The notes under the pieces were generated by a model. It ran no database searches and was not told the DNA's origin. It saw only the letters and a program-made list of their open reading frames with translations. This document shows positions 6,989 through 55,026 of a stretch of DNA of 64,000 bases, piece by piece; position 1 is the stretch's first letter, and each line of letters opens with the position of its first letter. Source of the stretch: Candidatus Sungiibacteriota bacterium (GTDB lineage: Bacteria; Patescibacteriota; Minisyncoccia; Sungbacterales; SURF-37); the NCBI GenBank assembly GCA_016186145.1, contig JACPMF010000002.1:18473-82472 (forward strand), written 5' to 3'. A program made the translations under genes and the position numbers.

Positions 6989-7930
6989 CTAAGGATTAAA
7001 TGCGTGCTCGTGCAAACGCGGGATATCAAAAAGGTCGTGGTAGATATCTTTTGTAAAAAAATCTTCGATGCTCCACGCTGACCAAAAATTCCACGCGCTC
7101 GTATAGCCGGTTCGTCTTGCCGCCAACTGCGCTTCTCTGCGAGGAACAGCGTTTCCAAAAACCCAACCGCAAGTTGTTGGCGAAGTGCCAACGATGTTTT
7201 TGATTCGCTCGGAAGATTCCCGCATTTCGTATTCAATCTCGTTCTCGCCAATCATGCTAAACCATGGATGCCTGTGGCTATGCGAAGCAATTTCCATTCC
7301 TCGCGCCGCAAGCGATAAAAGTTCATCGGCATTCATAAACCACTCATCAACGAGGTCGGCCTCATTACCCACAGCGTAACGCTCATAAATCTTAGTGACA
7401 AACTCCGCCTGAAGCGAAGGTGGAACAAAGTGGTTAAAAACCGCCTTGATAAGACGGAGCTCCGGCGGCTCGCCCATCTTCATTCCGGAGTAGTCAAGCT
7501 TTCCTTTTTCAAGCAATCGCCCATACGACCACAAACCGTACTCCTTAAAAAGGGCGGGGAGGATTTCATGTCTTAGGCGTTCTTCACCAAGTTTCTCAAT
7601 AGCGATCTGAAAACCTATTACCGGCGGCACCCGACCGTCCAGCGCGCATGTTATAACAAAAAAGGTTGCCGGCACTTCAAACTCCATAAGAATTGGCAGA
7701 GCGGCCGTGAACTGATCCTTAAATCCGTCATCAAAGGATAATGTTACATGCTTTTCCGGCAGTTGTCTGCTTCCGAAATGCGCCTGTCGTGCTACCTGAC
7801 CGCAAGTCATAAATTTATAACCATCTTCTTTTAGTCTGGAAATTTGAGCGCGAAGCCGTTCCGGCGAACAGGTCGGCCCAGGCGCCTTTCCATTACGGAT
7901 GTAGTGATAACCGAGATGCAGTGCTTCCAT
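6989..7930 (-). CDS. Polysaccharide deacetylase (NodB homology domain, CE4-like)
   Basis: HVTLSFDDGFKDQF motif (the TFDDG of the NodB domain), plus downstream His-containing motifs. Confidence 0.7.
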   Translation of the reverse strand: MEALHLGYHYIRNGKAPGPTCSPERLRAQISRLKEDGYKFMTCGQVARQAHFGSRQLPEKHVTLSFDDGFKDQFTAALPILMEFEVPATFFVITCALDGRVPPVIGFQIAIEKLGEERLRHEILPALFKEYGLWSYGRLLEKGKLDYSGMKMGEPPELRLIKAVFNHFVPPSLQAEFVTKIYERYAVGNEADLVDEWFMNADELLSLAARGMEIASHSHRHPWFSMIGENEIEYEMRESSERIKNIVGTSPTTCGWVFGNAVPRREAQLAARRTGYTSAWNFWSAWSIEDFFTKDIYHDLFDIPRLHEHAFNP

Positions 7931-7962
7931 CAGTCACCCCCATATTTTCATTTTAACGAGCA

Positions 7963-7993
7963 ATAAAAAAAATAGCACACAATGTGCTGTTTT
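7963..7993. terminator. Bidirectional intrinsic terminator
   Basis: A8 run (7965-7972), hairpin agcaca-caa-tgtgct (7974-7988), T-run (7990-7993). It terminates the minus-strand gene 8029..8889. Confidence 0.55.
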
Positions 7994-8028
7994 GTCAAAT
8001 ACCCGTTTGGCAAATTTAAACCGCCCTA

Positions 8029-8889
8029 TTACCCAAATGCGACAAAAACAGCGCCAGCAACCATGAATAGCGCGCCAATGAAGCGTTGGAGAAAATGATC
8101 TTCTCCACCCAAGATGCGCCCGAAAAGTACATCGAAAACGTTGCTCAACCGCTTTAACGATATAAAATAAACCGCCACGATAAGAGAGATCCCGATGTAA
8201 TGCAACGCCTGCCCTACTCCGAAAGCTCCTGCCATAAGAAAGGCTGGTTTCCATTTTTCGCGCAAAGTAAAAAACCCGTGGATAAAGAAGGCGGGCAGAT
8301 GCAGCAGCATAAGCGCAAATACCGTCCAGAACGCAAAAAGAACAGGTGGAAAATATTGAAGGGAAAACTTTATCATTGCCACTGAAAAACCGGCGGTTAG
8401 CGCAGCTGTAAGCATAAAATAACTTCCCCTCTCACGAAAGATACTAAAAAGCGCATTTCTAATGCCGGGCTTATACGCATCCCAACTAAGAATAAATCCA
8501 CCTACAAAAATGCTCCCAACGCCCAAAAATCCACGCGGAGAAGGAAGTTCGCCAACCAATATGTACGACGCAGGAATAAGAAACACCATCGAAAAAGAAA
8601 ACAGCGGGCCCACGAGGGACTGTGGAGAGTATTGGAACGCGCGTACATATCCATAGGCAGTTGCGATTTCCAATGGAACAACAAAACAAAGAATCAAAAA
8701 TGATACCCAAAGAGAAGGGAGCCGCCATTCAGAAAAAAACGTGACGATAAGCGCGGTAACTAAAACTCCGGCGCTGAAACGAAGCGCATTCAAAAAGTAC
8801 GGCGAGAAAGTTTTGAGACTTCGAATCTGGGTATTTTGAAATGAAGCAAGAAACGCGGTAAGGATTCCAAAAAGAAAACCAATGGGCAT
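8029..8889 (-). CDS. Polytopic membrane protein, DMT/EamA-like transporter
   Basis: About 10 hydrophobic helices with two-fold internal similarity. ATG at 8889 (MPIGFLFG); the track ORF extends to 8943 and overlaps the upstream gene. Confidence 0.45.
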   Translation of the reverse strand: MPIGFLFGILTAFLASFQNTQIRSLKTFSPYFLNALRFSAGVLVTALIVTFFSEWRLPSLWVSFLILCFVVPLEIATAYGYVRAFQYSPQSLVGPLFSFSMVFLIPASYILVGELPSPRGFLGVGSIFVGGFILSWDAYKPGIRNALFSIFRERGSYFMLTAALTAGFSVAMIKFSLQYFPPVLFAFWTVFALMLLHLPAFFIHGFFTLREKWKPAFLMAGAFGVGQALHYIGISLIVAVYFISLKRLSNVFDVLFGRILGGEDHFLQRFIGALFMVAGAVFVAFG

Positions 8890-9797: not shown

Positions 9798-10898
9798 GTG
9801 GCAAAACTGAAAATTCTCGTTGTTTCCAAAGACATGGGCGCATCGGAAATGAGCATGCCGCTTGCAGAACTTGCCGCAGATAATGGTCACGAGGTATCTC
9901 TTGTAATCGAAGGGCTTGCCGCAGAGAACTATGACAGGTTGAACGCGTGGCGAGCAGAGAAGGACGAAGCCTTCCTACCGGTTCTTTTCCGCGGCACCGT
10001 TGATTTTCGAGATTTCCCATTCACGCTTGACGCCGAAACGCTTGTCAAAAAAGTAAATCCGGACATCGTGATTGTTACCATGAGTTCTCCGATCAACCTT
10101 GAAGACCAGATCGGCAAAGCGGCAAACACGTTTGGCATTCCAGTTGTCGCGCTCAACGATTTCTGGGGCGGGCTCACACGGGCAAAAACCGCGAAGGCCG
10201 ATCTCATGCTCGGAATCGACGAAACCGATCTGGCCGCAGCACACCGTCATTTCAGTCACAACTACATATCCGCTGTTGTCGGCAACCACGCAGTCAGCAA
10301 AGCCCGTAGGATCAAGCCCTCACCTGAAATTCTATACAAAATGCTCGATCTTAAGCACCGCTTCGAAACAATCATCCTTTTTGCCGGAGGGGGTCCGGAA
10401 TACACCGGCGCGGAGATCAAACTCCTTGTAGGATGCCTGCAAAAAACACCCGGCTCCTGGGTTGTTATCAAGCGGTATCACGGCAAACATGCAAACCGAA
10501 CCGCGCCAAACGTCAACACAACATGGCGCGAAGTATGGGATTCACAATTTGCTCCGCTCGGAGACCGCATCATTGAACTTCCAACACCGGAAGGTGACGC
10601 GGTTGCAACCCTCTCTGACTGCACCGTTTCGGGATTCTCCACCATGATGACTACTGCGGTTGCCTCGTATAAAAGAGCAATCGCACTAGTGACCCCGGAA
10701 ACAAGAAAATCACTTAAAGCGCAGACAACCCTTGGCCGCTATCCTCTTGCCATGACCGGCCTTGTGCCGGAAATCGTAGTGCCGACAAACCTCGCTCCAT
10801 TCCTTCTCGAAATGCCTGACAAAAAAACCGTAGACTATTGGCTCAAGCCATATGATCCAGCACTTGCTCTGCGTGAAATCGAAAAACTTTTCGGCTAA
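9798..10898 (+). CDS. GT-B fold (MurG/PseG-like) protein of unknown specificity
   Basis: GTG start at 9798 preceded by AAGGAG (9784-9789). N-terminal Rossmann-like KILVVSKD...GHEV and a second alpha/beta half (ILFAGGGPEY). Sits between neuA and neuC. Confidence 0.35.
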   Translation: MAKLKILVVSKDMGASEMSMPLAELAADNGHEVSLVIEGLAAENYDRLNAWRAEKDEAFLPVLFRGTVDFRDFPFTLDAETLVKKVNPDIVIVTMSSPINLEDQIGKAANTFGIPVVALNDFWGGLTRAKTAKADLMLGIDETDLAAAHRHFSHNYISAVVGNHAVSKARRIKPSPEILYKMLDLKHRFETIILFAGGGPEYTGAEIKLLVGCLQKTPGSWVVIKRYHGKHANRTAPNVNTTWREVWDSQFAPLGDRIIELPTPEGDAVATLSDCTVSGFSTMMTTAVASYKRAIALVTPETRKSLKAQTTLGRYPLAMTGLVPEIVVPTNLAPFLLEMPDKKTVDYWLKPYDPALALREIEKLFG

Positions 10899-47392: not shown

Positions 47393-47687
47393 TCCCACAC
47401 ATAACTAATGCGTAAAACTATTGCGAAGTCTTTCCTTGAGCCTCCGCAGTCCCTGCGCATGTAGCTTTAAAGATTTCTCCCGATTATATGCATCTATTTT
47501 TGAAGAGTATGCCTCAAAATATACAAGGCGCCATGGAGCATACTTTTTGGTGTGGTATGAAAAACCACTATTATGCCACGAAAGTCGTTTCTGCAAATTA
47601 GAAGTACATCCTATATACAAACTGCGATTTTTCTTAGATTGTAAGAGATATACACAATAAAGCATAGCGCATTAGTTATGTGTGGGA
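47393..47687. mobile_element. TIR-bounded mini-element carrying a GIY-YIG nuclease gene (cccacacataact family)
   Basis: Perfect 19-20-bp TIRs: tcccacacataactaatgcg (47393-47412) and cgcattagttatgtgtggga (47668-47687). Flanked by ttcat on both sides. Confidence 0.6.
47405..47665 (-). CDS. GIY-YIG nuclease family protein (YhbQ-like)
   Basis: MLYCVYLLQS...LYIGCTSNLQKRLSWHN. Confidence 0.8.
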   Translation of the reverse strand: MLYCVYLLQSKKNRSLYIGCTSNLQKRLSWHNSGFSYHTKKYAPWRLVYFEAYSSKIDAYNREKSLKLHAQGLRRLKERLRNSFTH

Positions 47688-47741: not shown

Positions 47742-48908
47742 TCACAAAGTACTCAAACGGCCGATAATGCGTTCGGTCCGTTTTTTCCACGTATGATCTC
47801 CGGCTATTTCCAGCGCGCGGACGGCGCGCCTTCTTGACTCCGTGCGATCAGTAACCGCCCGATTTATGCCTTCCGCCAATGCTTCGGCGTTTTCCGGCTC
47901 AACCAAAAACGCCGAAGCATCGTCAATAATTTCCCTTATAGAATTCAAATCAGAAGCGACAATCGGCACGCCGCTTGCCATGTATTCAAAAATCTTCATC
48001 GGCGACATGTAAAAATTATAATGATCGTTTTTAGGAAACGGCGATATCAAAACATCGCACATTTTCAGATACTGGGGAACGCTGGAATGTTTAACCCAAC
48101 CGGTAAAAATAAGCTTCCGCTCTATGCCCATACCGGACGCCATTCTTTTATAATAGTCCGCATCTTCTTTACTTCCTCCGATTATAAGGGCCTTAAAATC
48201 GGGGCCAAGCAACTTCATAGCGCTAAACAGAGTTCCAACACCCTTTTCCATGTCCATAGTCCGCAACGAACCTGCGTAGCCGATCAAAAAGGTCTCCTCC
48301 GGAATATCGTAAGATTTTCTTAACAATACGCCATTGCCGGCCCCTGAAAAAGATTCAACATCAACAGCGTTTGGCTCATAGAAAAGCCTCTCTGCGGGCA
48401 CATCAAACAATTCGGCAATGCGCCCCTGTTTCCACCGGTTTGTAACAACCGCAAAACGGACGCGCCTGAAAAGCGTTTTATAAAATCTTGTATTACGAGG
48501 GAAATCATGCACTTCGTAAACAGTGTTTGGGAACCTCAACGAGGCAAAAAGAAGCGGCAACGCCTCATTTGAATACACGACAGCATCTTTTTTTGCAAAA
48601 AACAAAAGATACAGCAAAACCATTTTTGAAAACACGATATAACTTGCCGCAAAAGCCAGCCGCTTAAAAAAAGGCAGAAAAAGTAAGTCAATGGTCGGAA
48701 GATAAACAACCTTAAAATTATTTTTTACACCGTAAAATTCCGCAGGAGTGTTTCTTGATCTGCCGAGACGCCTCGGCGCGAGAAAAGTAACGGACACGCC
48801 AGCATCGGCAAACGCCTCCGCATTTTTTGCGGCAAAAACTGCCGCCGCTTTCTCGCCGGGAAATCTGCCGTGAAATATCAAAAATAGCTCTTTATGCACT
48901 GGCCTCAT
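47742..48908 (-). CDS. Glycosyltransferase family 4
   Basis: KIFEYMASGVPIVASDL motif. Confidence 0.8.
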   Translation of the reverse strand: MRPVHKELFLIFHGRFPGEKAAAVFAAKNAEAFADAGVSVTFLAPRRLGRSRNTPAEFYGVKNNFKVVYLPTIDLLFLPFFKRLAFAASYIVFSKMVLLYLLFFAKKDAVVYSNEALPLLFASLRFPNTVYEVHDFPRNTRFYKTLFRRVRFAVVTNRWKQGRIAELFDVPAERLFYEPNAVDVESFSGAGNGVLLRKSYDIPEETFLIGYAGSLRTMDMEKGVGTLFSAMKLLGPDFKALIIGGSKEDADYYKRMASGMGIERKLIFTGWVKHSSVPQYLKMCDVLISPFPKNDHYNFYMSPMKIFEYMASGVPIVASDLNSIREIIDDASAFLVEPENAEALAEGINRAVTDRTESRRRAVRALEIAGDHTWKKRTERIIGRLSTL

Positions 48909-50068
48909 ATGGACCCAAAAGACTCTTTATACATTAACAAATACTCATTTTGAGTTTTTGGCGACAAAGCAAGAACTTCTTCCTGCGCCCTCTCGGCCAT
49001 CTGTCTCATTTTCTGATTATTTTGTCTGGCCCATTTTAAAATACCGGCAAGCTTTTGGGCATCTTTTACCCCTATCACCCGCCCCGTTTCTCCATCCCTA
49101 ATTATGTCCCCCGCCACTCCAACATCGGTCATAACCACCGGACAGCCGGCGGCCGCAGCTTCAAGCACGGTACGGCCATAACCTTCAAAATTTGAAGTCA
49201 GAAGATAGATATCGGCGCCTTTATAGTATGAAACAAGATCGTCCTGCCAACCCTCAAAGCAGACTTTGTCCGCAAACCCTAAACTCGAAACTCTTCCGCC
49301 GGAGGCGGATCCGCCTTTGGCGGAAAACCCTAAACCATTACGTTCCGGGCCGTCTCCGACAATAACAAGGCCGCTTTTGGGAAATGACTTAACAAACTCC
49401 GAAAACGCCTCAAGCGCCATGCCGATATTTTTCTCACGCGTAAGTCGCGAAACCATTAGAATAATAAAATCAAATTGAGGATATTTGTTATGAAGATTAA
49501 AGCTTGGTCCTGCGTCAGCAATTCGTGCGCAGTCAACAAAGATAGGCAATACAGACAATGCTGAATGCTGAATGCTGAATGCTGAATTTAACGAATTAGC
49601 AATTCGTTTAGAAACAACTCGAAATTTGTCACCGCTGGGAATAATAAATCGCGCTAACCAATACCTCAATCGCTCTTTCCATGAATTTTTTCTGAAGCGC
49701 GGTGAGAAAAAATCTGCATGAATTTGAATATGAAGTTTTACACCAAGCGCTTTTTTCAAAAACCAACCGGCTATTCCGGTTTCTGCCGGATCTTGAACAC
49801 TCACCATTTTAATACCTCGCTCTTTAATAATCTTCTTGGCGATACGAAACGCATCAAACGGCCGCATAAAATAAAACCGCGAATTTGTAGGATAAAGAAA
49901 AAGAGGCATTGCGCGTTCCTGCTTGAATCCGCGGCCGGTATAAATAACCATATGATACTCCTCAAAAAGCCCGGCGTATTCGCGGATTCTTGCACCCGCA
50001 GGAGAATTCGGATCAAGCATGGAAATATCGGTCCCAATTATTAATATTTTCCCAGCACTTATTGACAT
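48905..50068 (-). CDS. Glycosyltransferase family 4
   Basis: EGYGRTVLEAAAAGCPVVMTDVG motif. Carries an in-frame (ATGCTGAAT)x3 repeat plus a palindrome at 49556-49600. Confidence 0.8.
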   Translation of the reverse strand: MSISAGKILIIGTDISMLDPNSPAGARIREYAGLFEEYHMVIYTGRGFKQERAMPLFLYPTNSRFYFMRPFDAFRIAKKIIKERGIKMVSVQDPAETGIAGWFLKKALGVKLHIQIHADFFSPRFRKNSWKERLRYWLARFIIPSGDKFRVVSKRIANSLNSAFSIQHSALSVLPIFVDCARIADAGPSFNLHNKYPQFDFIILMVSRLTREKNIGMALEAFSEFVKSFPKSGLVIVGDGPERNGLGFSAKGGSASGGRVSSLGFADKVCFEGWQDDLVSYYKGADIYLLTSNFEGYGRTVLEAAAAGCPVVMTDVGVAGDIIRDGETGRVIGVKDAQKLAGILKWARQNNQKMRQMAERAQEEVLALSPKTQNEYLLMYKESFGSI

Positions 50069-50133
50069 ATAAATTTATTTATGTTAAACTATAAAAACAA
50101 GCAAAGTACTAAATTATGTGACCGGAGGTAAAA

Positions 50134-50565
50134 ATGCCTTACGAAGATGTGCCCTTTAAAAACAGTGATGAACTTATGCAAATCTATCGTGAGGTCATAC
50201 GGAATAAATTCATTGAAGTTAATGGCTTATTCTGGCCTATTTCGGCTCTTGTTACACCGACTAGCAACGGTCGCCACATAACTACTGACTTCGAAGCATT
50301 CGATGGATTCATGAGGGGCCTTCGGGCTGCGTGGATTCAGATTGTAAGTGAGGAAGAAACATTGGACCCGGAACCCGGCATAGAGAAGCTCCGAAAGGCC
50401 ACATTTATTGCTACGCCACCACGTCGAGAACCGCAGCGAATGGTTGTTGAGGAGTATGTAGCGATAGATGACAAAAACCCCATTGGTGTTAGCCGCGTCG
50501 ACATCGCAGTATATTCTGAAGGCAAAAGACCGGATCTTGAAAACCGACGCCGCATCGAACTGTAG
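50134..50565 (+). CDS. Hypothetical small protein, paralog A
   Basis: 143 aa. GGAGG Shine-Dalgarno. Shares FEAFDGFMRGLRA and VVEEYVAIDD...GVSRVDIAVY blocks with the next ORF. Confidence 0.55.
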   Translation: MPYEDVPFKNSDELMQIYREVIRNKFIEVNGLFWPISALVTPTSNGRHITTDFEAFDGFMRGLRAAWIQIVSEEETLDPEPGIEKLRKATFIATPPRREPQRMVVEEYVAIDDKNPIGVSRVDIAVYSEGKRPDLENRRRIEL

Positions 50566-50599
50566 CGCAGTCCAACCAACAAACCGAAAGGAGATGCCA

Positions 50600-50935
50600 A
50601 TGTCCTACAACCATACGACGGTTGAATTCGAGGCGTTCGACGCCTTCATCATGGCCCTCCGGACCTTCGGCATCAGGCCGAAAAAGGTAGAGAACCTCGA
50701 GGTGGCAGAGGGATTTACGGGGCGGAAGTTGCGTCGCACAACTTTCATGGCCCCCCGAAAGCGAAGCACAAGTGGATTCAATGCGAAGCAACTCGGTAAT
50801 ATGCAAATGTTGGTAGTCGAGGAATATCTTGCCGTTGACGACCACGACGACGATGGCATCAGCCGCGTCGCCATCGAGGTCTATCCGTACGGCCACCGAC
50901 CGAACCTTGAAGGTCGGTGCACAATCGCCGACTGA
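50600..50935 (+). CDS. Hypothetical small protein, paralog B
   Basis: 112 aa from ATG 50600. AGGAG Shine-Dalgarno. FEAFDAFIMALRT and VVEEYLAVDD...ISRVAIEVY blocks. Local GC about 57 percent. Confidence 0.55.
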   Translation: MSYNHTTVEFEAFDAFIMALRTFGIRPKKVENLEVAEGFTGRKLRRTTFMAPRKRSTSGFNAKQLGNMQMLVVEEYLAVDDHDDDGISRVAIEVYPYGHRPNLEGRCTIAD

Positions 50936-50960
50936 TCATAAGCGCCACAAAGCGGCTCCT

Positions 50961-50992
50961 GCCGCGACCCACAGAGTCGCGGCGTTTTCTTT
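50961..50992 (+). terminator. Intrinsic terminator
   Basis: gccgcgac-ccacaga-gtcgcggc followed by gttttcttt. Confidence 0.6.
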
Positions 50993-53309
50993 ATGTTAGA
51001 CACCGCATGTCTAACACTTCTACTGTTTCTGCAAGCATTTTCTCTTTAGTAAACCGACTGGCAGTCGCGCGAGCTTGGGCAGAAAGCTGATCACGGAACG
51101 CCGAGTCGCCTAAAAATCTTCGCACCGCATCCACGATTCCTGCGTTGTCATTATATGATACCAAAATTCCGTTTTCGCCGTCTCTGACGATTTCTAGATT
51201 CCCGCCAACAGGAGTAGTAATCACCGGAATACCGGCTGCCATTGCCTCAAGAATGGTGTGCGAAAACCCCTCATACGCGGTATTCAATACAAAAACATCT
51301 GCCGCGGCAAGATACTTTAAGACCACCTCATGCGGCACACTACCGGCTATAAATACCACACATCCCAAACCAAATTTCTTAATTTCCAGTTTCAATTTTT
51401 CTTCATCAGGACCAGATCCAATAATGTAAAGTTTAAAATCGGGCAGATTCTTCCTTATAACTGCCGCGCTTTCAATAAGCGCGGAAAACCCTTTCCACGG
51501 CACAAGACGCCCGACAGATACTGCAATACTTCCGGATAAGCCAAGTTCCTGGCGCGCACCATCCTTTGTGATTTTTTCTGGTGGCGCATCAACGGCATTG
51601 TAAATAACAACTATTTTATCCTCTTCAACTCCCCAACAACAAACAATTCGTTTCAGATACTCGCTCGGCACGATAATCTTACCGGCCCTCCGCGCCACAA
51701 ATTTTTGAATTCTCCTCCTCAGCTCGGTAATAAAATCAAACTTTTCGTTTTGAAATTCATCGACATTTACAAATCTTGCCCCGCTATTTTGAGCTTTTTG
51801 CTGGTACTGTTCCCACGCATAATCGCCAACAACCTTAAGTATGAATTTTTTCTTCAGCAATTTTGCCGCAATGGCCGCCGGAAGCCCGACACTCACCGGA
51901 TCTTGCGCAAAGATAATATTGGCCCTCCGCGCCCTTGCAATAAGTTTCAAAAAATATACAAAATGGCGGATAACTTTTGGGAGATAGCGCACTGTTCCAA
52001 AACTTAAAACCTCAACTCGAAAACCGCGACTGGGTAATTCATCAACCAGCAACTTACTGTACGTCGCGGGGCCGCCGATATCAGGAGGAAAAATTCCGGT
52101 TGCGATGAGCAAATTAATTTTCTTAGCGCTTTCTGTGACGTATCTGAATACTTCTCCATATTTTTCCGCAATCGCGTCCCACTGAAAACGGGCTACTGCC
52201 GTTTTCTTTCCTTCCCCCTGTATTCGGCCTCGAAGTTCTTCGTTTTTAAAAAGCGTTTCCATTTTATCGGCGCAATCCTCCGCATCATCAATCCTAACCG
52301 CAAGGCCGGTCTTTCCGTCTTCCAAAAAATCGGGTATGCCGCCGGCCATTGTGCCTACAATCGGCAAACCAGCGGCCATGGCCTCAATAAATGAGTTTCC
52401 GAGGCCTTCGGAGCGCGAGGGACGCACAAAAACATCCGATATCTTGAGATATTTAGGAATGTCTTTATGCGAGATGTCGCCAAGGAAAATAACGCTATCC
52501 CCAACCCCATCTTTTCTAACAAGTGCTTTTAACGCTTCTTCTTCACCGCCGGAGCCGAGTACTAAAAATTTCACCTTGTAACCGCTTCGCGACAAAATGC
52601 CAATTGCCCTAATAGCAACATCAACCGCGTTTTTATGAACAAGACGGGAGGTAGTAATAACGACTTTTTCATCTGCGGCAATACCTAATTCTTTCCTAAG
52701 AGATCGTAATTCATCTTGCGGGAATTCTTTAGTAAATTCCGAGACATCCACACCGTTTGGTATCACCGCGCCCTCACCCTTATAACCGAATTCTTTACCG
52801 AGATTCAATAAAAAAGTGCTTATTGCGGTAAGATACGAGGTTCGACTTAATGCTTTACCCCATGAAAAACCGATAAGGCCGAACTTGGCTTTTTTTATAT
52901 GCCGAACGGGGTCTCCTTCCTGAAGCGTTAATACAACCGGAGTGGGTTTAGCGGGGCGGAAAATATTAATCAAATAAGGAATACCGGAAGCATACGTTGC
53001 CATAACAGCCCAAAAGAGAACGGGCTTTTCTTTTCGCAAGAAGCGCTTTACAACAAAAAAACCGAGAAACGGAATAAAAAACTTATCAAACCAAAAACCA
53101 AAGCCGATTCTTCGAATCGCTATGCCATCCTTCTCTTCGTACTTTGGCAAATCGATTCTGAAGCGTGACGTGAAAATAAAAAAACGAAACTCGTTATTGA
53201 GCCGCTCCACCACTTCCTGTATCGCTATTTCTGCCCCGCCGATAAAAGGGTCATAGGCAGTAGTAAAGACAAAAACTGCCGGCTTTTCACCCTGCTTTTC
53301 TTCTTTCAT
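50991..53309 (-). CDS. Tandem double glycosyltransferase family 4 fusion
   Basis: Two complete GT4 modules: SEGLGNSFIEAMAAGLPIVGT and YEGFSHTILEAMAAGIPVITT. 772 aa. Confidence 0.75.
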   Translation of the reverse strand: MKEEKQGEKPAVFVFTTAYDPFIGGAEIAIQEVVERLNNEFRFFIFTSRFRIDLPKYEEKDGIAIRRIGFGFWFDKFFIPFLGFFVVKRFLRKEKPVLFWAVMATYASGIPYLINIFRPAKPTPVVLTLQEGDPVRHIKKAKFGLIGFSWGKALSRTSYLTAISTFLLNLGKEFGYKGEGAVIPNGVDVSEFTKEFPQDELRSLRKELGIAADEKVVITTSRLVHKNAVDVAIRAIGILSRSGYKVKFLVLGSGGEEEALKALVRKDGVGDSVIFLGDISHKDIPKYLKISDVFVRPSRSEGLGNSFIEAMAAGLPIVGTMAGGIPDFLEDGKTGLAVRIDDAEDCADKMETLFKNEELRGRIQGEGKKTAVARFQWDAIAEKYGEVFRYVTESAKKINLLIATGIFPPDIGGPATYSKLLVDELPSRGFRVEVLSFGTVRYLPKVIRHFVYFLKLIARARRANIIFAQDPVSVGLPAAIAAKLLKKKFILKVVGDYAWEQYQQKAQNSGARFVNVDEFQNEKFDFITELRRRIQKFVARRAGKIIVPSEYLKRIVCCWGVEEDKIVVIYNAVDAPPEKITKDGARQELGLSGSIAVSVGRLVPWKGFSALIESAAVIRKNLPDFKLYIIGSGPDEEKLKLEIKKFGLGCVVFIAGSVPHEVVLKYLAAADVFVLNTAYEGFSHTILEAMAAGIPVITTPVGGNLEIVRDGENGILVSYNDNAGIVDAVRRFLGDSAFRDQLSAQARATASRFTKEKMLAETVEVLDMRCLT

Positions 53310-53352: not shown

Positions 53353-54870
53353 TCAAATCCGTAAAAACAAGAATCCGGCAGCGACAATAACGCCAATAGC
53401 CGCGGCAACGGCAAAAAACCAAAGCGGGGAAAAACCACCTGAAGCCAAAGGACTGGCCGCCTCTTTTAAAGAAGATGATTCCTGCTGATAGCCGGGTCCA
53501 ACGCCGTTACTGTCTTTATCGTCAATAACAGGAGCAACCAAAAGAGAGTCGCGCCCATCCACTGGAACATCGCTTTCGAGTGAAAGTTTACCTTGTCGGC
53601 CTTCGGCAGATACGCTTTCCGGTAAAACCACGGCGGTATTTGGCACCAAAACCGCGGGGCCGGGAACAATGTATACGCCGGGGGTCAACGATTTTGTTTT
53701 CACAAACTTTTGCCCCCCGCCTGACGCGCGCGTAAAACTCTCCTCCATAAGGAGGGGTTCTTTAAAATCACCGTAATCAATAATTTCCTCCAACGCATTC
53801 TTCAATACTATGTATGAACCGTTTTGAAAAAGGTTAGTAACGGCATTTGGAAAAACAAGGGCTGACTTCGGCTCAATGAACGTATCTTTTTGAATCACAA
53901 AAGCAGAATCGCCGCTTTCAAAACGAAACCCGCCGAGATCAAGCCGATAAGCAGTACCATTGTAAACTTCGAGAAAACCACGCTCGCCAGACTTTGCCTC
54001 GCTGATTATTATATTTGGGCTTACTACGGTGATTTTGATATAATCGGCGCCGGCATATTCACCGGAGGAAACATTCAGACTTGCAGTATAACTGCCTGGA
54101 AAATAATAAACATGCGATACGATTTTTCCTTCTTTTGTTGTGCCATCGCCGAAGTTCCAGGAAAATCTCGCCGAAATCAGCGGCTCACCGTTTATGCCGT
54201 CGGCACTTCCCCGAAACTCCACCAATGAGCCCTGAACCGCGGTGCGGTCTTTACCGGCATACGCTTTCAAAGATGGCAGTGGCGTCACGCCGGATGAAAC
54301 CGCGACCTCTTCCGATGGCAGATCTTGCGGCGAATCATCGGGCGGCGCGCTTTCACTATTCTCGTCTGAAGCATTTGCGGCGCGCGGAGTAGAGACGGCA
54401 GTAATCCACCCCGAAGATACGCGCTGCATAGTTTCTTTGGTAGTATTATCACCTGCAGGCCAGCCGGCGGATGCGTCAACTTGATCGACTGCTGCTCCGA
54501 TGTCATTTTTGAGTATCAACACCTCGCCGCTATTCGAAAGCGCGCCGGTATAAATACAGTCTGCCGCAACATTCGGCACGGTGTCGTCATTTGTTCTTTC
54601 CAATAAAAAATATCCGCCTGCCGACAGAACGGTATTCGCGCATTTATCCGAATTGATAGTAAGGCCGTATTCGCCGCCTCGCCACTCAAGGCGCCAGCCG
54701 GAAAGGTCAACCGGCGAACCCGCATCATTCTTCAACTCAACCCATTCATCGGCCGTAGAAACACCTGTTCCCATCCATGCGACCTCGCTAATCACCACCG
54801 AAGCCAATGCCGATTGGGCCAAAGCCAACACCGCCAGCGCCAATAAAACATAAAGCCATGCACTCCGCAT
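53353..54870 (-). CDS. Surface protein with signal peptide, two lamin-tail domains, a PKD domain and a C-terminal TM anchor
   Basis: Lamin-tail segments: ISEVAWMG...DEWVELKN...DLSGWRL and ISEAKSG...FLEVYNG. PKD segment: WNFGDGT...HVY. ATG at 54870 (MRSAWL). Confidence 0.55.
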   Translation of the reverse strand: MRSAWLYVLLALAVLALAQSALASVVISEVAWMGTGVSTADEWVELKNDAGSPVDLSGWRLEWRGGEYGLTINSDKCANTVLSAGGYFLLERTNDDTVPNVAADCIYTGALSNSGEVLILKNDIGAAVDQVDASAGWPAGDNTTKETMQRVSSGWITAVSTPRAANASDENSESAPPDDSPQDLPSEEVAVSSGVTPLPSLKAYAGKDRTAVQGSLVEFRGSADGINGEPLISARFSWNFGDGTTKEGKIVSHVYYFPGSYTASLNVSSGEYAGADYIKITVVSPNIIISEAKSGERGFLEVYNGTAYRLDLGGFRFESGDSAFVIQKDTFIEPKSALVFPNAVTNLFQNGSYIVLKNALEEIIDYGDFKEPLLMEESFTRASGGGQKFVKTKSLTPGVYIVPGPAVLVPNTAVVLPESVSAEGRQGKLSLESDVPVDGRDSLLVAPVIDDKDSNGVGPGYQQESSSLKEAASPLASGGFSPLWFFAVAAAIGVIVAAGFLFLRI

Positions 54871-54906
54871 GGCTTTATTCGTAGCCGAGTTGTAGAAACT
54901 CGTCAA

Positions 54907-55026
54907 TCCCACACATAACTGGACATGTTTTTGTTTTCAGTCACGAAAGAATTGGTAGCGATTTGTCAGACTAAAAAGTATGTTATGATTTAAAACACGG
55001 GACATTATGTCAAGTTATGTGTGGGA
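54907..55026. mobile_element. Non-coding MITE-like element of the cccacacataact TIR family
   Basis: tcccacacataact (54907-54920) and agttatgtgtggga (55013-55026). Flanked by tcaa on both sides. Confidence 0.5.

Follow-up and report, generated by a model that had tools for sequence, protein, structure and literature searches.

Phage morons, as Juhala, Hendrix and colleagues reportedly described them, are autonomous extra genes in lambdoid prophages. The pair of small genes analyzed here, ORFs A and B, and the family of their relatives in other genomes share with morons the layout of a small gene or gene pair with its own σ70 promoter and intrinsic terminator, a base composition unlike that of the neighbors, a position wedged between functionally unrelated genes and a cargo that varies between related genomes. 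The A/B family differs from morons in that the examined loci have no flanking phage genes and do not lie within prophages, and in that the same chromosomal site is kept despite saturated synonymous divergence (dS). Free-standing homing-endonuclease cassettes, such as those formed in T4-like phages by seg and mob, genes of the GIY-YIG type, are also small autonomous insertions between conserved genes; GIY-YIG genes occur near family genes, and the block common to two of the family loci is younger than its flanks. In contrast to these cassettes, the family protein has no detectable nuclease domain and most loci have no adjacent endonuclease gene. An integron gene cassette, which consists of a promoterless ORF followed by attC and is usually arrayed beside an integrase, was considered and rejected: the unit has its own promoter, only a simple terminator hairpin lies downstream, and neither an integrase nor an array is present. 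We regard it as somewhat probable that A and B form a long-resident, duplicated and autonomous accessory gene unit, probably highly expressed and sometimes mobile. It would represent an accessory, occasionally mobile cassette with a moron-like layout that lies outside any prophage.

In the window, the 64-kb stretch of a Candidatus Sungbacteria genome analyzed here, the pair is located on the plus strand between two GT4 glycosyltransferase genes on the minus strand, one divergent (48905–50068) and one convergent (50991–53309). It is organized as a single operon. A σ70-type promoter at 50062–50090 (TTGACA, 17-nt spacer, TAAACT with an extended −10 TG; 10/12 matches) overlaps with its −35 box the ATG of the divergent GT4 gene, and the Shine-Dalgarno site GGAGGT (50124–50129) is placed 4 nt ahead of the ATG of ORF A (50134–50565, 143 aa, GC 47.2%). 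The following 34-nt C/A-rich spacer carries at 50572–50593 the family-typical translational leader, CCAACCAACAAACC and then the Shine-Dalgarno sequence AAAGGAG (50587–50593), 6 nt ahead of the ATG of ORF B (50600–50935, 111 aa, GC 55.7%, GC3 0.70; start MSYNHTTVEFEAFDAF). The operon is closed by an intrinsic terminator at 50960–50994, with a 9-bp G+C-rich stem containing seven G-C pairs (50960–50984) and a T-run to 50994, which the stop codon of the convergent GT4 gene abuts.

The original prediction, made from this sequence alone, gave the length of ORF A and the end of ORF B (50935) correctly and made B one residue too long, at 112 aa. The start at 50600 fits the family N-terminus MSYNHTTVGFEAFDAF, which is conserved from residue 1, and in two other assemblies of this population the gene callers arrive at 111 aa too. 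ORF A matches NCBI HYW90_00375 exactly, and the NCBI call for ORF B is truncated to 94 aa; in the annotation, the start codon of ORF B should be corrected to 50600. Long antisense ORFs (for example 50489–50896 on the minus strand) are not kept open in relatives, and an overlapping antisense gene was rejected in favor of a by-product of GC-rich codons. Of the 52 long ORFs of the window, 44 are encoded on the other strand, and the cumulative GC skew drops steadily across the window, so that the A/B unit is probably oriented head-on to replication. This orientation is unusual for highly expressed core genes and counts against a reading of high output.

The expression signals of the unit stand out in the window and recur throughout the family. 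Promoter sites as good as 10/12 occur only 12 times on both strands of the window, and a recognizable Shine-Dalgarno core is found in only 3–5 of its 52 long ORFs; the sites found ahead of A and B bear out the predicted strong ribosome-binding sites, unlike those of most genes here, and the predicted strong terminator is likewise present. Within 200 nt upstream, a promoter match of at least 10/12 was detected at 13 of 16 family loci (background 0.057 per 200 nt) and a perfect 12/12 match at 5 of 16 (background 0.002). The overlap between −35 box and GT4 start codon has the same form in the window and in three further loci (L003, L004 and L023). Strong Shine-Dalgarno sites are present throughout the family loci, and nearly all other loci have, behind the family gene, a terminator comparable to that of the window. 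Almost everywhere, the family gene is a self-contained unit: a near-consensus σ70 promoter is followed by a C/A-rich leader that is itself unstructured and in many cases accompanied by a 5′ hairpin, then by a strong Shine-Dalgarno sequence, a GC-rich ORF that favors C- and G-ending codons and a strong terminator. Among the window and all fetched loci, the C/A-rich leader motif occurs almost only ahead of family genes and ahead of one unrelated ORF, termed X, in L010, where the leader AACCAACAAACC...GGAGATGCCA is nearly identical to that of ORF B. Taken together, these signals would yield a stable mRNA constitutively and in large amounts, in a genome whose genes mostly lack a Shine-Dalgarno sequence.

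ORFs A and B are paralogs, as proposed from their common conserved blocks: the quoted blocks are real, and BLASTP aligns the two proteins with 42% identity over 107 residues (E = 1e-20). ORF B is a canonical family member. In ORF A, the family domain comprises residues 48–143 and stands behind a lineage-specific N-terminal insertion or extension of 43–47 residues; all 16 family-invariant residues are retained, and dN/dS relative to relatives is ~0.19. The identical A–B arrangement is found in four further samples; the population comes from groundwater and is also present in SRR12113383, -384, -420 and -424. In a neighbor-joining tree, ORF B clusters with the copies from the same GT4 site and A is not sister to B, so the "tandem duplication" could instead represent an older paralogy or a second insertion. 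ORF A has gained its N-terminal insertion and drifted in GC content to a host-like level, and ORF B retains the family signature. In the other loci, the family gene is either single (L001, L002, L004, L005, L007, L008, L012, L018, L021 and L023) or paired with unrelated ORFs (L003 and L010). The partner ORFs of L003 and L010 show no relationship to each other, and in L003 the unrelated ORF takes the place of B.

The same gene occupies the same slot between GT4 genes in the genomes of L003, L004 and L023, and the GT4 flanks of L003 and L004 are only 61–72% identical in protein sequence, with dS saturated. Because related genomes carry the gene at the same GT4 site with flanks that have diverged to this extent, the recent acquisition claimed in the original prediction is unsupported. 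The best reading of these sequences is that the A/B unit has been long resident in the GT4–GT4 slot of a Sungbacteria-like lineage across substantial divergence. The unit likewise does not behave as a recently transferred genomic islet, given the identical site in all three genomes and a host-like GC content in A, though not in B. What survives of the proposed foreign-looking horizontal module are the Shine-Dalgarno sites, the opposite strand, the GC-rich ORF B and the signs of mobility in the family; the word "recent" does not.

These signs of horizontal mobility begin with the varied genomic contexts in which the family is found. Examination of the neighbors of homologs, suggested at the outset as a check, yielded mostly housekeeping genes and no conserved partner: the neighbors include ThrRS, DnaE, SMC, LemA, infC-rpmI-rplT, tmRNA, ParAB, RelA and GT4 genes, and the only neighbors to recur across lineages are small GIY-YIG genes, in 2–3 loci. 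In L001 and L012 the family gene has a small GIY-YIG gene as its immediate neighbor, and in the window such a gene lies 2.5 kb from the unit. L002 and L012 have in common a ~570-bp block that is much younger than the flanking genes, with a dS of 0.23 for the family gene and of at least 1.3 for the flanks; within this block, non-coding upstream sequence is about as conserved as synonymous sites. The 70-nt block that adjoins the L002/L012 cassette was detected neither in the window nor in the other loci. Searches for a phage or plasmid origin gave no tblastn match in 50,697 phage records or 72,556 plasmids and none in IMG/VR.

A search of 5.8 billion clusters gave ten other matches, and a profile search of 1.84 billion cluster representatives returned 97 relatives, all ~100 aa (range ~90–200 aa). 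The alignment of 67 family sequences was too diverse to seed searches for loci, and one candidate locus, L009 (Planctomycetaceae), was discarded as a spurious short match inside an MMPL transporter. The family consists of rare proteins of ~100 residues that are predicted to be soluble and of α+β type. Sixteen residues are invariant, including H5, E11, R45, E74-E75-Y76, Y95 and R100-P101, and dN/dS values of 0.07–0.45 show purifying selection on the protein. No known family is recognizable, as had been stated from the sequence: A and B have no match in Pfam, NCBIfam, PHROGs or PADLOC, Pfam has none for the 67 family members, a search of PADLOC-DB with E up to 10 was empty, and a profile search of PDB sequences gave no match. 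The AlphaFold2 model of ORF B (pLDDT 86.4, pTM 0.76) has no convincing Foldseek match in PDB or BFVD. Its predicted order of strand, helix, strand, strand, long hairpin and strand over ~100 residues is reminiscent of NTF2-like, SnoaL-like and cystatin-like rolls, and the weak top matches are SnoaL-type cyclases, NTF2, Mtr2, Tim44-C, VirB8 and cystatin-based scaffolds. However, these comparisons reach TM-scores of at most 0.34, with E at least 0.4 and probability at most 0.25, the family model has one helix only, and there is no sequence signal. Judged from the model, the resemblance to this fold is probably one of general shape only rather than of membership. Instead of being a toxin, the A/B protein might be present in the cytoplasm in large amounts and serve there for binding or sequestration; a small enzyme would likewise be compatible with the conserved His, Glu, Tyr and Arg residues.

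A functional alternative, which we consider unlikely, is that the family comprises orphan immunity or decoy proteins, abundant small and mostly acidic binders that neutralize an incoming effector, nuclease or host factor, and that tandem paralogs broaden specificity as they do in immunity-gene arrays. Most members are indeed small, soluble and acidic (pI 4.1–5.2), some with very acidic C-terminal tails, and the sporadic distribution, the constitutive-looking promoters and the tandem pair in the window agree with this proposal. Patescibacteria are generally described as episymbiotic, and the identified hosts are Patescibacteria (Sungbacteria and Saccharibacteria) together with one metagenome-assembled genome labelled Gammaproteobacteria. 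Yet none of ~15 genomic contexts contains a cognate toxin gene or a polymorphic-toxin locus, neither sequence nor fold resembles known immunity families or DNA mimics, and ORF B of the window, unlike most members, is near-neutral in charge (pI 6.3). Moreover, the invariant residues with their His/Glu/Tyr/Arg set point to a single active or binding site that has been conserved, which is unexpected for diversifying immunity proteins.

A second alternative places function at the level of the transcript: a dual-function structured RNA in which selection on the RNA accounts for GC-richness and low dS, the protein being secondary. Bacterial mRNAs can be stabilized by 5′ stem-loops, as in ompA, or by compact folding, as in hok-type mRNAs. 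Several family members resemble these mRNAs: a 5′ hairpin abuts the Shine-Dalgarno sequence, hairpins are dense in the coding region, the 5′ end pairs with the 3′ end, and one hairpin or two are located on the 3′ side. They differ from these mRNAs in that the family product is a soluble protein of ~100 residues and not a small hydrophobic toxin, and in that the copies of the window have no strong structure. Against shuffles of synonymous codons, the family has a median z of −2.4, compared with −0.6 for 24 flanking-gene controls (p = 5e-4). Five members reach z values of −3.7 to −8.1, and the whole transcripts of L008 and L018 reach ~−10. In many members, raised GC is accompanied by low dS and by mRNA secondary structure under selection. 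In the L002/L012 pair, the dS of the family gene is low relative to that of its flanks. Two subfamilies maintain some base pairs through two-sided changes, the first 15 of 68 and the second 17 of 136, and a hairpin recurs at the same codon position although the amino acids differ.

Several results nonetheless make a primarily RNA-level function distinctly improbable. The covariation term is weak or unfavorable in alignments of only 4–5 sequences each; a codon-based alignment of 18 genes yields no family-wide consensus structure, the structure being subfamily-specific; and searches of the window and of 14 loci against Rfam returned only tRNA and tmRNA genes, which are unrelated. The copies of the window are not exceptionally structured (z of −0.5 for A, −1.1 for B and −1.8 for the whole transcript), and L023 is unstructured as well. 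The protein is under clear purifying selection and has a confidently predicted fold, and the conserved non-coding block upstream of the L002/L012 genes fits recent shared ancestry at least as well. Since L004 combines a GC3 of 0.86 with a z of only −1.3, mRNA structure leaves part of the GC excess unexplained.

This excess also bears on a further alternative, that A and B are two ordinary lineage-specific hypothetical proteins whose deviations arise by chance or from amino-acid content. Some figures of the window speak for it. The local GC content had been put at about 57%, and only ORF B is high (55.7% against a window mean of 46.4%, sd 2.5; top 0.3% of 336-nt windows). The pair has 51.0% and falls only in the top 4% of 802-nt windows, and ORF A is ordinary, with 41% in its N-terminal 47 codons and 50% in the family-domain part. 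Ten stretches of the window at the 300-nt scale reach at least 54% GC, so that B is high and not unique, and the window transcript is not unusually structured. Across loci, however, the family gene exceeds its host in GC in 14 of 14 independent loci, by 13.8 points on average, with sharp edges and at third codon positions (GC3 up to 0.92). Present in all 14 loci, the excess is a trait of the family and no mark of when this genome acquired the gene. Upstream of family genes, near-consensus promoters are enriched >10-fold; both ORFs have Shine-Dalgarno sites, which are rare in this genome; and the leader motif recurs ahead of an unrelated gene family in another organism. The chance explanation, already disfavored by these cross-locus statistics, therefore retains little probability.

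Weakest of all is the proposal that a two-gene toxin/immunity, toxin–antitoxin or anti-phage defense module was recently acquired by a glycosyltransferase operon, which we regard as highly improbable: the unit resembles type II toxin–antitoxin and toxin–immunity pairs in its two small co-transcribed ORFs with their own promoter, in strong ribosome-binding sites atypical of the genome, in its GC-rich ORF B and in its sporadic distribution, the family gene of L001 adjoins an RHH/YafQ-like toxin–antitoxin pair and a GIY-YIG gene, and both GT4 flanks have secondary matches to the Pfam "GT4-conflict" model, but generic GT4 families match these same residues far more strongly, A and B are paralogs of each other and not a toxin with a different partner, the pairing is not conserved among relatives, which are mostly single or have unrelated partners, A and B have no match in PADLOC, Pfam or PHROGs and the 67 members none in Pfam, no toxin, antitoxin or immunity domain is recognizable, and, L001 aside, the neighbors are mostly housekeeping genes and not defense islands or mobile-element genes, and the same slot is filled in three diverged genomes. 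It fails both on pairing and on synteny.

Returning to the autonomous accessory unit, the family may, as a tentative and rather doubtful extension, belong to a class of expression cassettes for small proteins that has not been described before and would occur in Patescibacteria and perhaps in further bacteria. The same layout may be common to three or more small-protein families that are unrelated to one another: A/B, the 84-aa X (L010, L024 and L026) and the second ORF of L003. Such a cassette may consist of (i) a near-consensus promoter, (ii) a C/A-rich leader with a strong Shine-Dalgarno sequence, (iii) a hairpin-rich coding region rich in G/C-ending codons and (iv) a strong terminator; in the X family, the near-consensus promoter was not seen in L026 and the C/A-rich leader is absent from L024. 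Members of the class may evolve slowly at synonymous sites, may be combined as two units per transcript and may move or be replaced independently of their flanks. Elsewhere in the 64-kb window, no further copy of the A/B or X family was found.

For the annotation of this genome the result is a modest one: the pair is not a defense or toxin module. The pattern at the level of the family is of greater interest, since proteins without known relatives or fold are encoded behind near-textbook promoters, by coding sequences that are far more stably folded than their synonymous shuffles and that stay 10–24 GC points above an AT-rich host. If real, this pattern would make selection on synonymous sites and on mRNA structure accessible to study in bacteria that are uncultivated and have reduced genomes. 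With an unrelated family showing the same layout, A/B might serve to mark a class of autonomous small-gene cassettes, which, if it exists, would represent either a new mobile cassette without a recognizable mobility gene or a dedicated stable-mRNA system for abundant small proteins. In such cells, the proteins of the A/B family could be the most abundant of the unknown ones, and they are worth seeking in metatranscriptomes and metaproteomes.

ORF A (50134-50565, plus strand, 143 aa) and ORF B (50600-50935, plus strand, 111 aa) lie between two GT4 glycosyltransferase genes of the opposite strand, a divergent gene of 387 aa (48905-50068) on one side and a gene of 772 aa (50991-53309) on the other, and are paralogous, with 42% identity over 107 residues (E 1e-20). 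The opposite-strand position between GT4 genes, the paralogy and the length of ORF A agree with the original prediction. For ORF B the end at 50935 stands and the length of 112 aa does not, since the protein starts at the ATG at 50600. The NCBI call (HYW90_00380, 94 aa, beginning MALRT) lacks 17 conserved N-terminal residues (50600-50650), and we consider it truncated because (i) all relatives begin with M-S-[YW]-[ND]-H-x-T, (ii) a Shine-Dalgarno site AAAGGAG lies 6 nt upstream of this ATG, and (iii) 111 aa is also the length called in other assemblies of this population. On these grounds, 50600 should be the correct start.

Transcription of the pair is predicted to begin from a plus-strand promoter at 50062-50090, which pairs TTGACA with TAAACT across 17 nt and has an extended -10 TG. 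Its -35 box overlaps, on the opposite strand, the ATG-TCA start of the 387-aa GT4 gene (50062-50068). ORF A has the Shine-Dalgarno site GGAGGT 4 nt upstream of its ATG, and ORF B is followed by the terminator that had been predicted, a plus-strand hairpin with a 9-bp stem (50960-50984) and a T-run that ends at 50994. Because neither a promoter nor a terminator is found between A and B, the two genes probably form a single operon. The ribosome-binding sites are as unusual here as was proposed: a Shine-Dalgarno core is recognisable in only 3-5 of the 52 long ORFs in the window, so that this genome mostly starts translation without one. The minus strand carries 44 of these 52 ORFs and cumulative GC skew declines steadily across the 64 kb, which suggests that the unit probably opposes the direction of replication (head-on). 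Among the few other plus-strand genes, a 366-aa ORF at 9798-10898 has a C/A-rich leader, an AAGGAG site, a surrounding kilobase of raised GC (50.9%) and no match in Pfam, and may be another foreign-looking insertion.

Neither A, B nor 67 relatives match Pfam, NCBIfam, PHROGs or PADLOC, and a profile search of PDB sequences was likewise empty, in agreement with the original remark that no known family is recognisable. A word-indexed search of 5.8 billion clusters matched ten other small proteins. When 1.84 billion representatives were searched exhaustively with a profile, there were 97 matches, 65 of them below 1e-10 and nearly all 90-170 aa long. The family is rare yet real. In a 12-sequence alignment, 16 positions are invariant (M1, H5, T7, E11, L20, R45, F49, E74, E75, Y76, G86, Y95, R100, P101, L103 and E104), and ORF A retains all 16; family dN/dS is 0.07-0.45. 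AlphaFold2 with a 67-sequence alignment (pLDDT 86.4, pTM 0.76) predicts a strand at 6-8, a helix at 11-22, strands at 30-32 and 45-52, a long hairpin at 68-81/87-96 and a strand at 108-110. Individual members elaborate on this domain: in P0010, P0016, P0027, P0032 and P0033 a Cys-rich, zinc-ribbon-like insertion (CxC...CPCCxxxCxH) separates the helix from the LRxAxF strand, and in P0015, P0031 and P0064 the C-terminus extends beyond a conserved [FL][IL]Yx[IL]NDG motif as a long, extremely acidic tail. Most members are acidic (pI 4.1-5.2); ORF B has a pI of 6.3.

The family gene is accompanied by the same elements in other genomes. At 13 of 16 loci, the 200 nt upstream contain a promoter that matches at 10/12 positions or more (background 0.057 per 200 nt), and 5 of 16 have a perfect TTGACA-17-TATAAT (background 0.002 per 200 nt). 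The leader is C/A-rich (e.g. CCAACCCCAAACC), often with a small hairpin right beside a strong Shine-Dalgarno site (AAGGAGGTG), a pattern almost exclusive to these genes across the window and all loci scanned. A strong intrinsic terminator, sometimes of two hairpins, follows the gene.

Elevated GC is a further trait of the family. At each of the 14 independent loci compared, the gene is richer in GC than the remainder of its contig, by 13.8 points on average (range 2-24), and the excess has sharp edges, approximately at the promoter and at the terminator. It is carried by third codon positions (GC3 0.56-0.92 in most members), with codons ending preferentially in C, then G. General high-expression codon bias of the hosts does not explain it, because ribosomal-protein genes adjoining the unit have a GC3 of about 0.3-0.4. 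In the window (46.4% GC), the local value of about 57% originally given for the pair holds approximately for ORF B (55.7%, GC3 0.70, top 0.3% of same-size windows) and not for ORF A (47.2%, ordinary among same-size windows) or the pair as a whole (51.0%, top 4%); ten other 300-nt stretches also reach at least 54%. Compositional deviance within the pair is limited to ORF B, so that the original observation is confirmed in part. The N-terminal 47 codons of ORF A have 41% GC and its family-domain part 50%.

The coding sequences were also compared for mRNA structure. We compared native folding energies to synonymous-codon shuffles with protein and codon usage fixed (negative z, more stable) and obtained z-scores of -8.1 (L008), -6.0 (L018), -5.6 (L010), -4.5 (L007), -3.7 (L002), -2.9 (L001), -1.9 (L005), -1.7 (L012), -1.3 (L004) and +0.2 (L023) for family genes in fetched loci of other genomes, and of -1.1 and -0.5 for ORF B and ORF A, respectively. 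This distribution is shifted relative to 24 flanking control genes (median -0.6, minimum -3.2; Mann-Whitney p = 5e-4), and dinucleotide shuffles of the whole transcript give z of about -10 in L008 and L018. RNAalifold found multi-hairpin structures within subfamilies, and no structure is common to the whole family. In two subfamily alignments of only 4-5 sequences each, pairing is maintained by changes on both sides for 15 of 68 and 17 of 136 base pairs, respectively, and one hairpin keeps its codon position despite different amino acids. Selected mRNA structure is therefore real in part of the family. It is not characteristic of the window copies, whose joint transcript has a z of only -1.8, and it does not account for all of the GC excess, as L004 combines a GC3 of 0.86 with a z of -1.3.

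The original interpretation is supported in part. The unit looks foreign to its genome, as was proposed; the further claims of a toxin/immunity or defence-type pair and of recent acquisition are not supported. Pfam PF20706 ('GT4 in conflict systems') matches both GT4 flanks secondarily, but the generic GT4 models match the same residues far more strongly, and we do not read this as a sign of defence context. A 519-aa protein encoded downstream of the GT4 genes (53353-54912, minus strand) combines a lamin-tail domain and PKD domains with a hydrophobic anchor at its C-terminus, and is probably located at the cell surface.

Genomic contexts from about 20 fetched loci are varied: infC-rpmI-rplT and tmRNA (L002, L012), ThrRS and DnaE (L018), SMC and LemA (L010), a D-Ala-D-Ala carboxypeptidase (L008), ParAB and RelA (L021), a GHMP kinase (L005), and an RHH/YafQ pair with GIY-YIG (L001). 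The Planctomycetaceae relative from the genome scan (L009, 8001-8123) is spurious, a short match within a transporter of the MMPL/RND type (1221 aa). Across lineages, these loci show no recurring partner gene, and phage, plasmid and IMG/VR collections hold no homolog of the family. Together with the shared GT4 slot described below, these results lead us to reject a conserved two-gene module, a defence-island setting and recent acquisition in this genome; that A and B are paralogs without a PADLOC match also speaks against a toxin/immunity pair.

Residence at this site is instead of long standing. A family gene lies between the same two GT4 genes in L003, L004 and L023, one copy in each, and the overlap of the -35 box with the GT4 start codon recurs in all four loci, the window included. 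The GT4 flanks of L003 and L004 are 61-72% identical to those of the window with saturated dS, and their family proteins share 55-57% identity with ORF B. A neighbour-joining tree places ORF B with L003 (68% bootstrap) and L004 and L023 adjacent, and ORF A on a long branch that is not sister to ORF B. At the position of ORF B, L003 has an unrelated GC-rich 96-aa ORF (L003:685-975, GC3 0.70, z -2.7) with a AAAGGAGG ribosome-binding site and no match in Pfam.

Elsewhere the unit has probably moved. The related hosts of L002 and L012 have infC, rplT and rpmI products that are 71-91% identical (pS 0.62-0.86), compared to a pS of 0.20, far lower, for their family genes. DNA similarity is restricted to a block of about 570 bp comprising promoter, gene and terminator (within L002:1285-1910 and L012:3905-4893), with identities of 76% in upstream non-coding DNA, 85% in promoter and leader, 88% in the ORF, 70% in the terminator and about 45% in the flanks, whose genes have saturated dS. 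Because non-coding divergence in the block approximates that at synonymous sites, the block probably shares a younger ancestor than the host genes, i.e. transfer or replacement. Its distance from infC differs between the two loci. A second conserved element of 70 nt occurs on the left of the L002 cassette; in L012 it directly adjoins the 3′ end of tmRNA, to the right of both the cassette and a GIY-YIG gene. The two orders are related by circular permutation, with GTGGA at both L012 ends of the junction, which could be the footprint of excision, integration or duplication. Small stand-alone GIY-YIG genes (85-106 aa) directly adjoin the family gene in L001 (2189-2509) and L012 (4473-4739), and one lies 2.5 kb from A-B (47405-47665, minus strand); this suggestive association may be real or may reflect the commonness of such genes in these genomes.

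A wider class of such units is an idea drawn from the second ORF of L003, which resembles the layout of ORF X, and from ORF X itself in L010, L024 and L026. In L010 (7701-7955, within 7539-8400), this 84-aa ORF is upstream of, co-transcribed with and unrelated to the family gene, and its leader is a close match to the A-B spacer (CCAACCAACAAACCGAAAGGAGATGCCA). The X family has 36 matches of 67-132 aa, mostly about 80 aa, and the sources that name an organism label it Patescibacteria. X genes in L024 (2339-2611) and L026 (3001-3252; stand-alone, on the opposite strand beside LeuRS) share most of the layout: their GC is 0.49-0.52 versus 0.33-0.42 for the host, both the Shine-Dalgarno site, which is strong, and the terminator are present, and synonymous-shuffle z is -3.7 and -4.8 (-2.2 to -4.8 overall). 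The leader is C/A-rich in L026, and the promoter match is 9/12 in L024 and only 7/12 in L026.

The pair represents two diverged copies of one autonomous accessory gene unit, which encodes a novel small protein and has long been resident at a conserved site in a Sungbacteria-like lineage. ORF B retains the GC-rich signature of the family, and ORF A has acquired an N-terminal insertion and shifted to the composition of its host. From sequence features, we infer that A-B expression would be high and constitutive, and that the protein may serve a binding or sequestering role.
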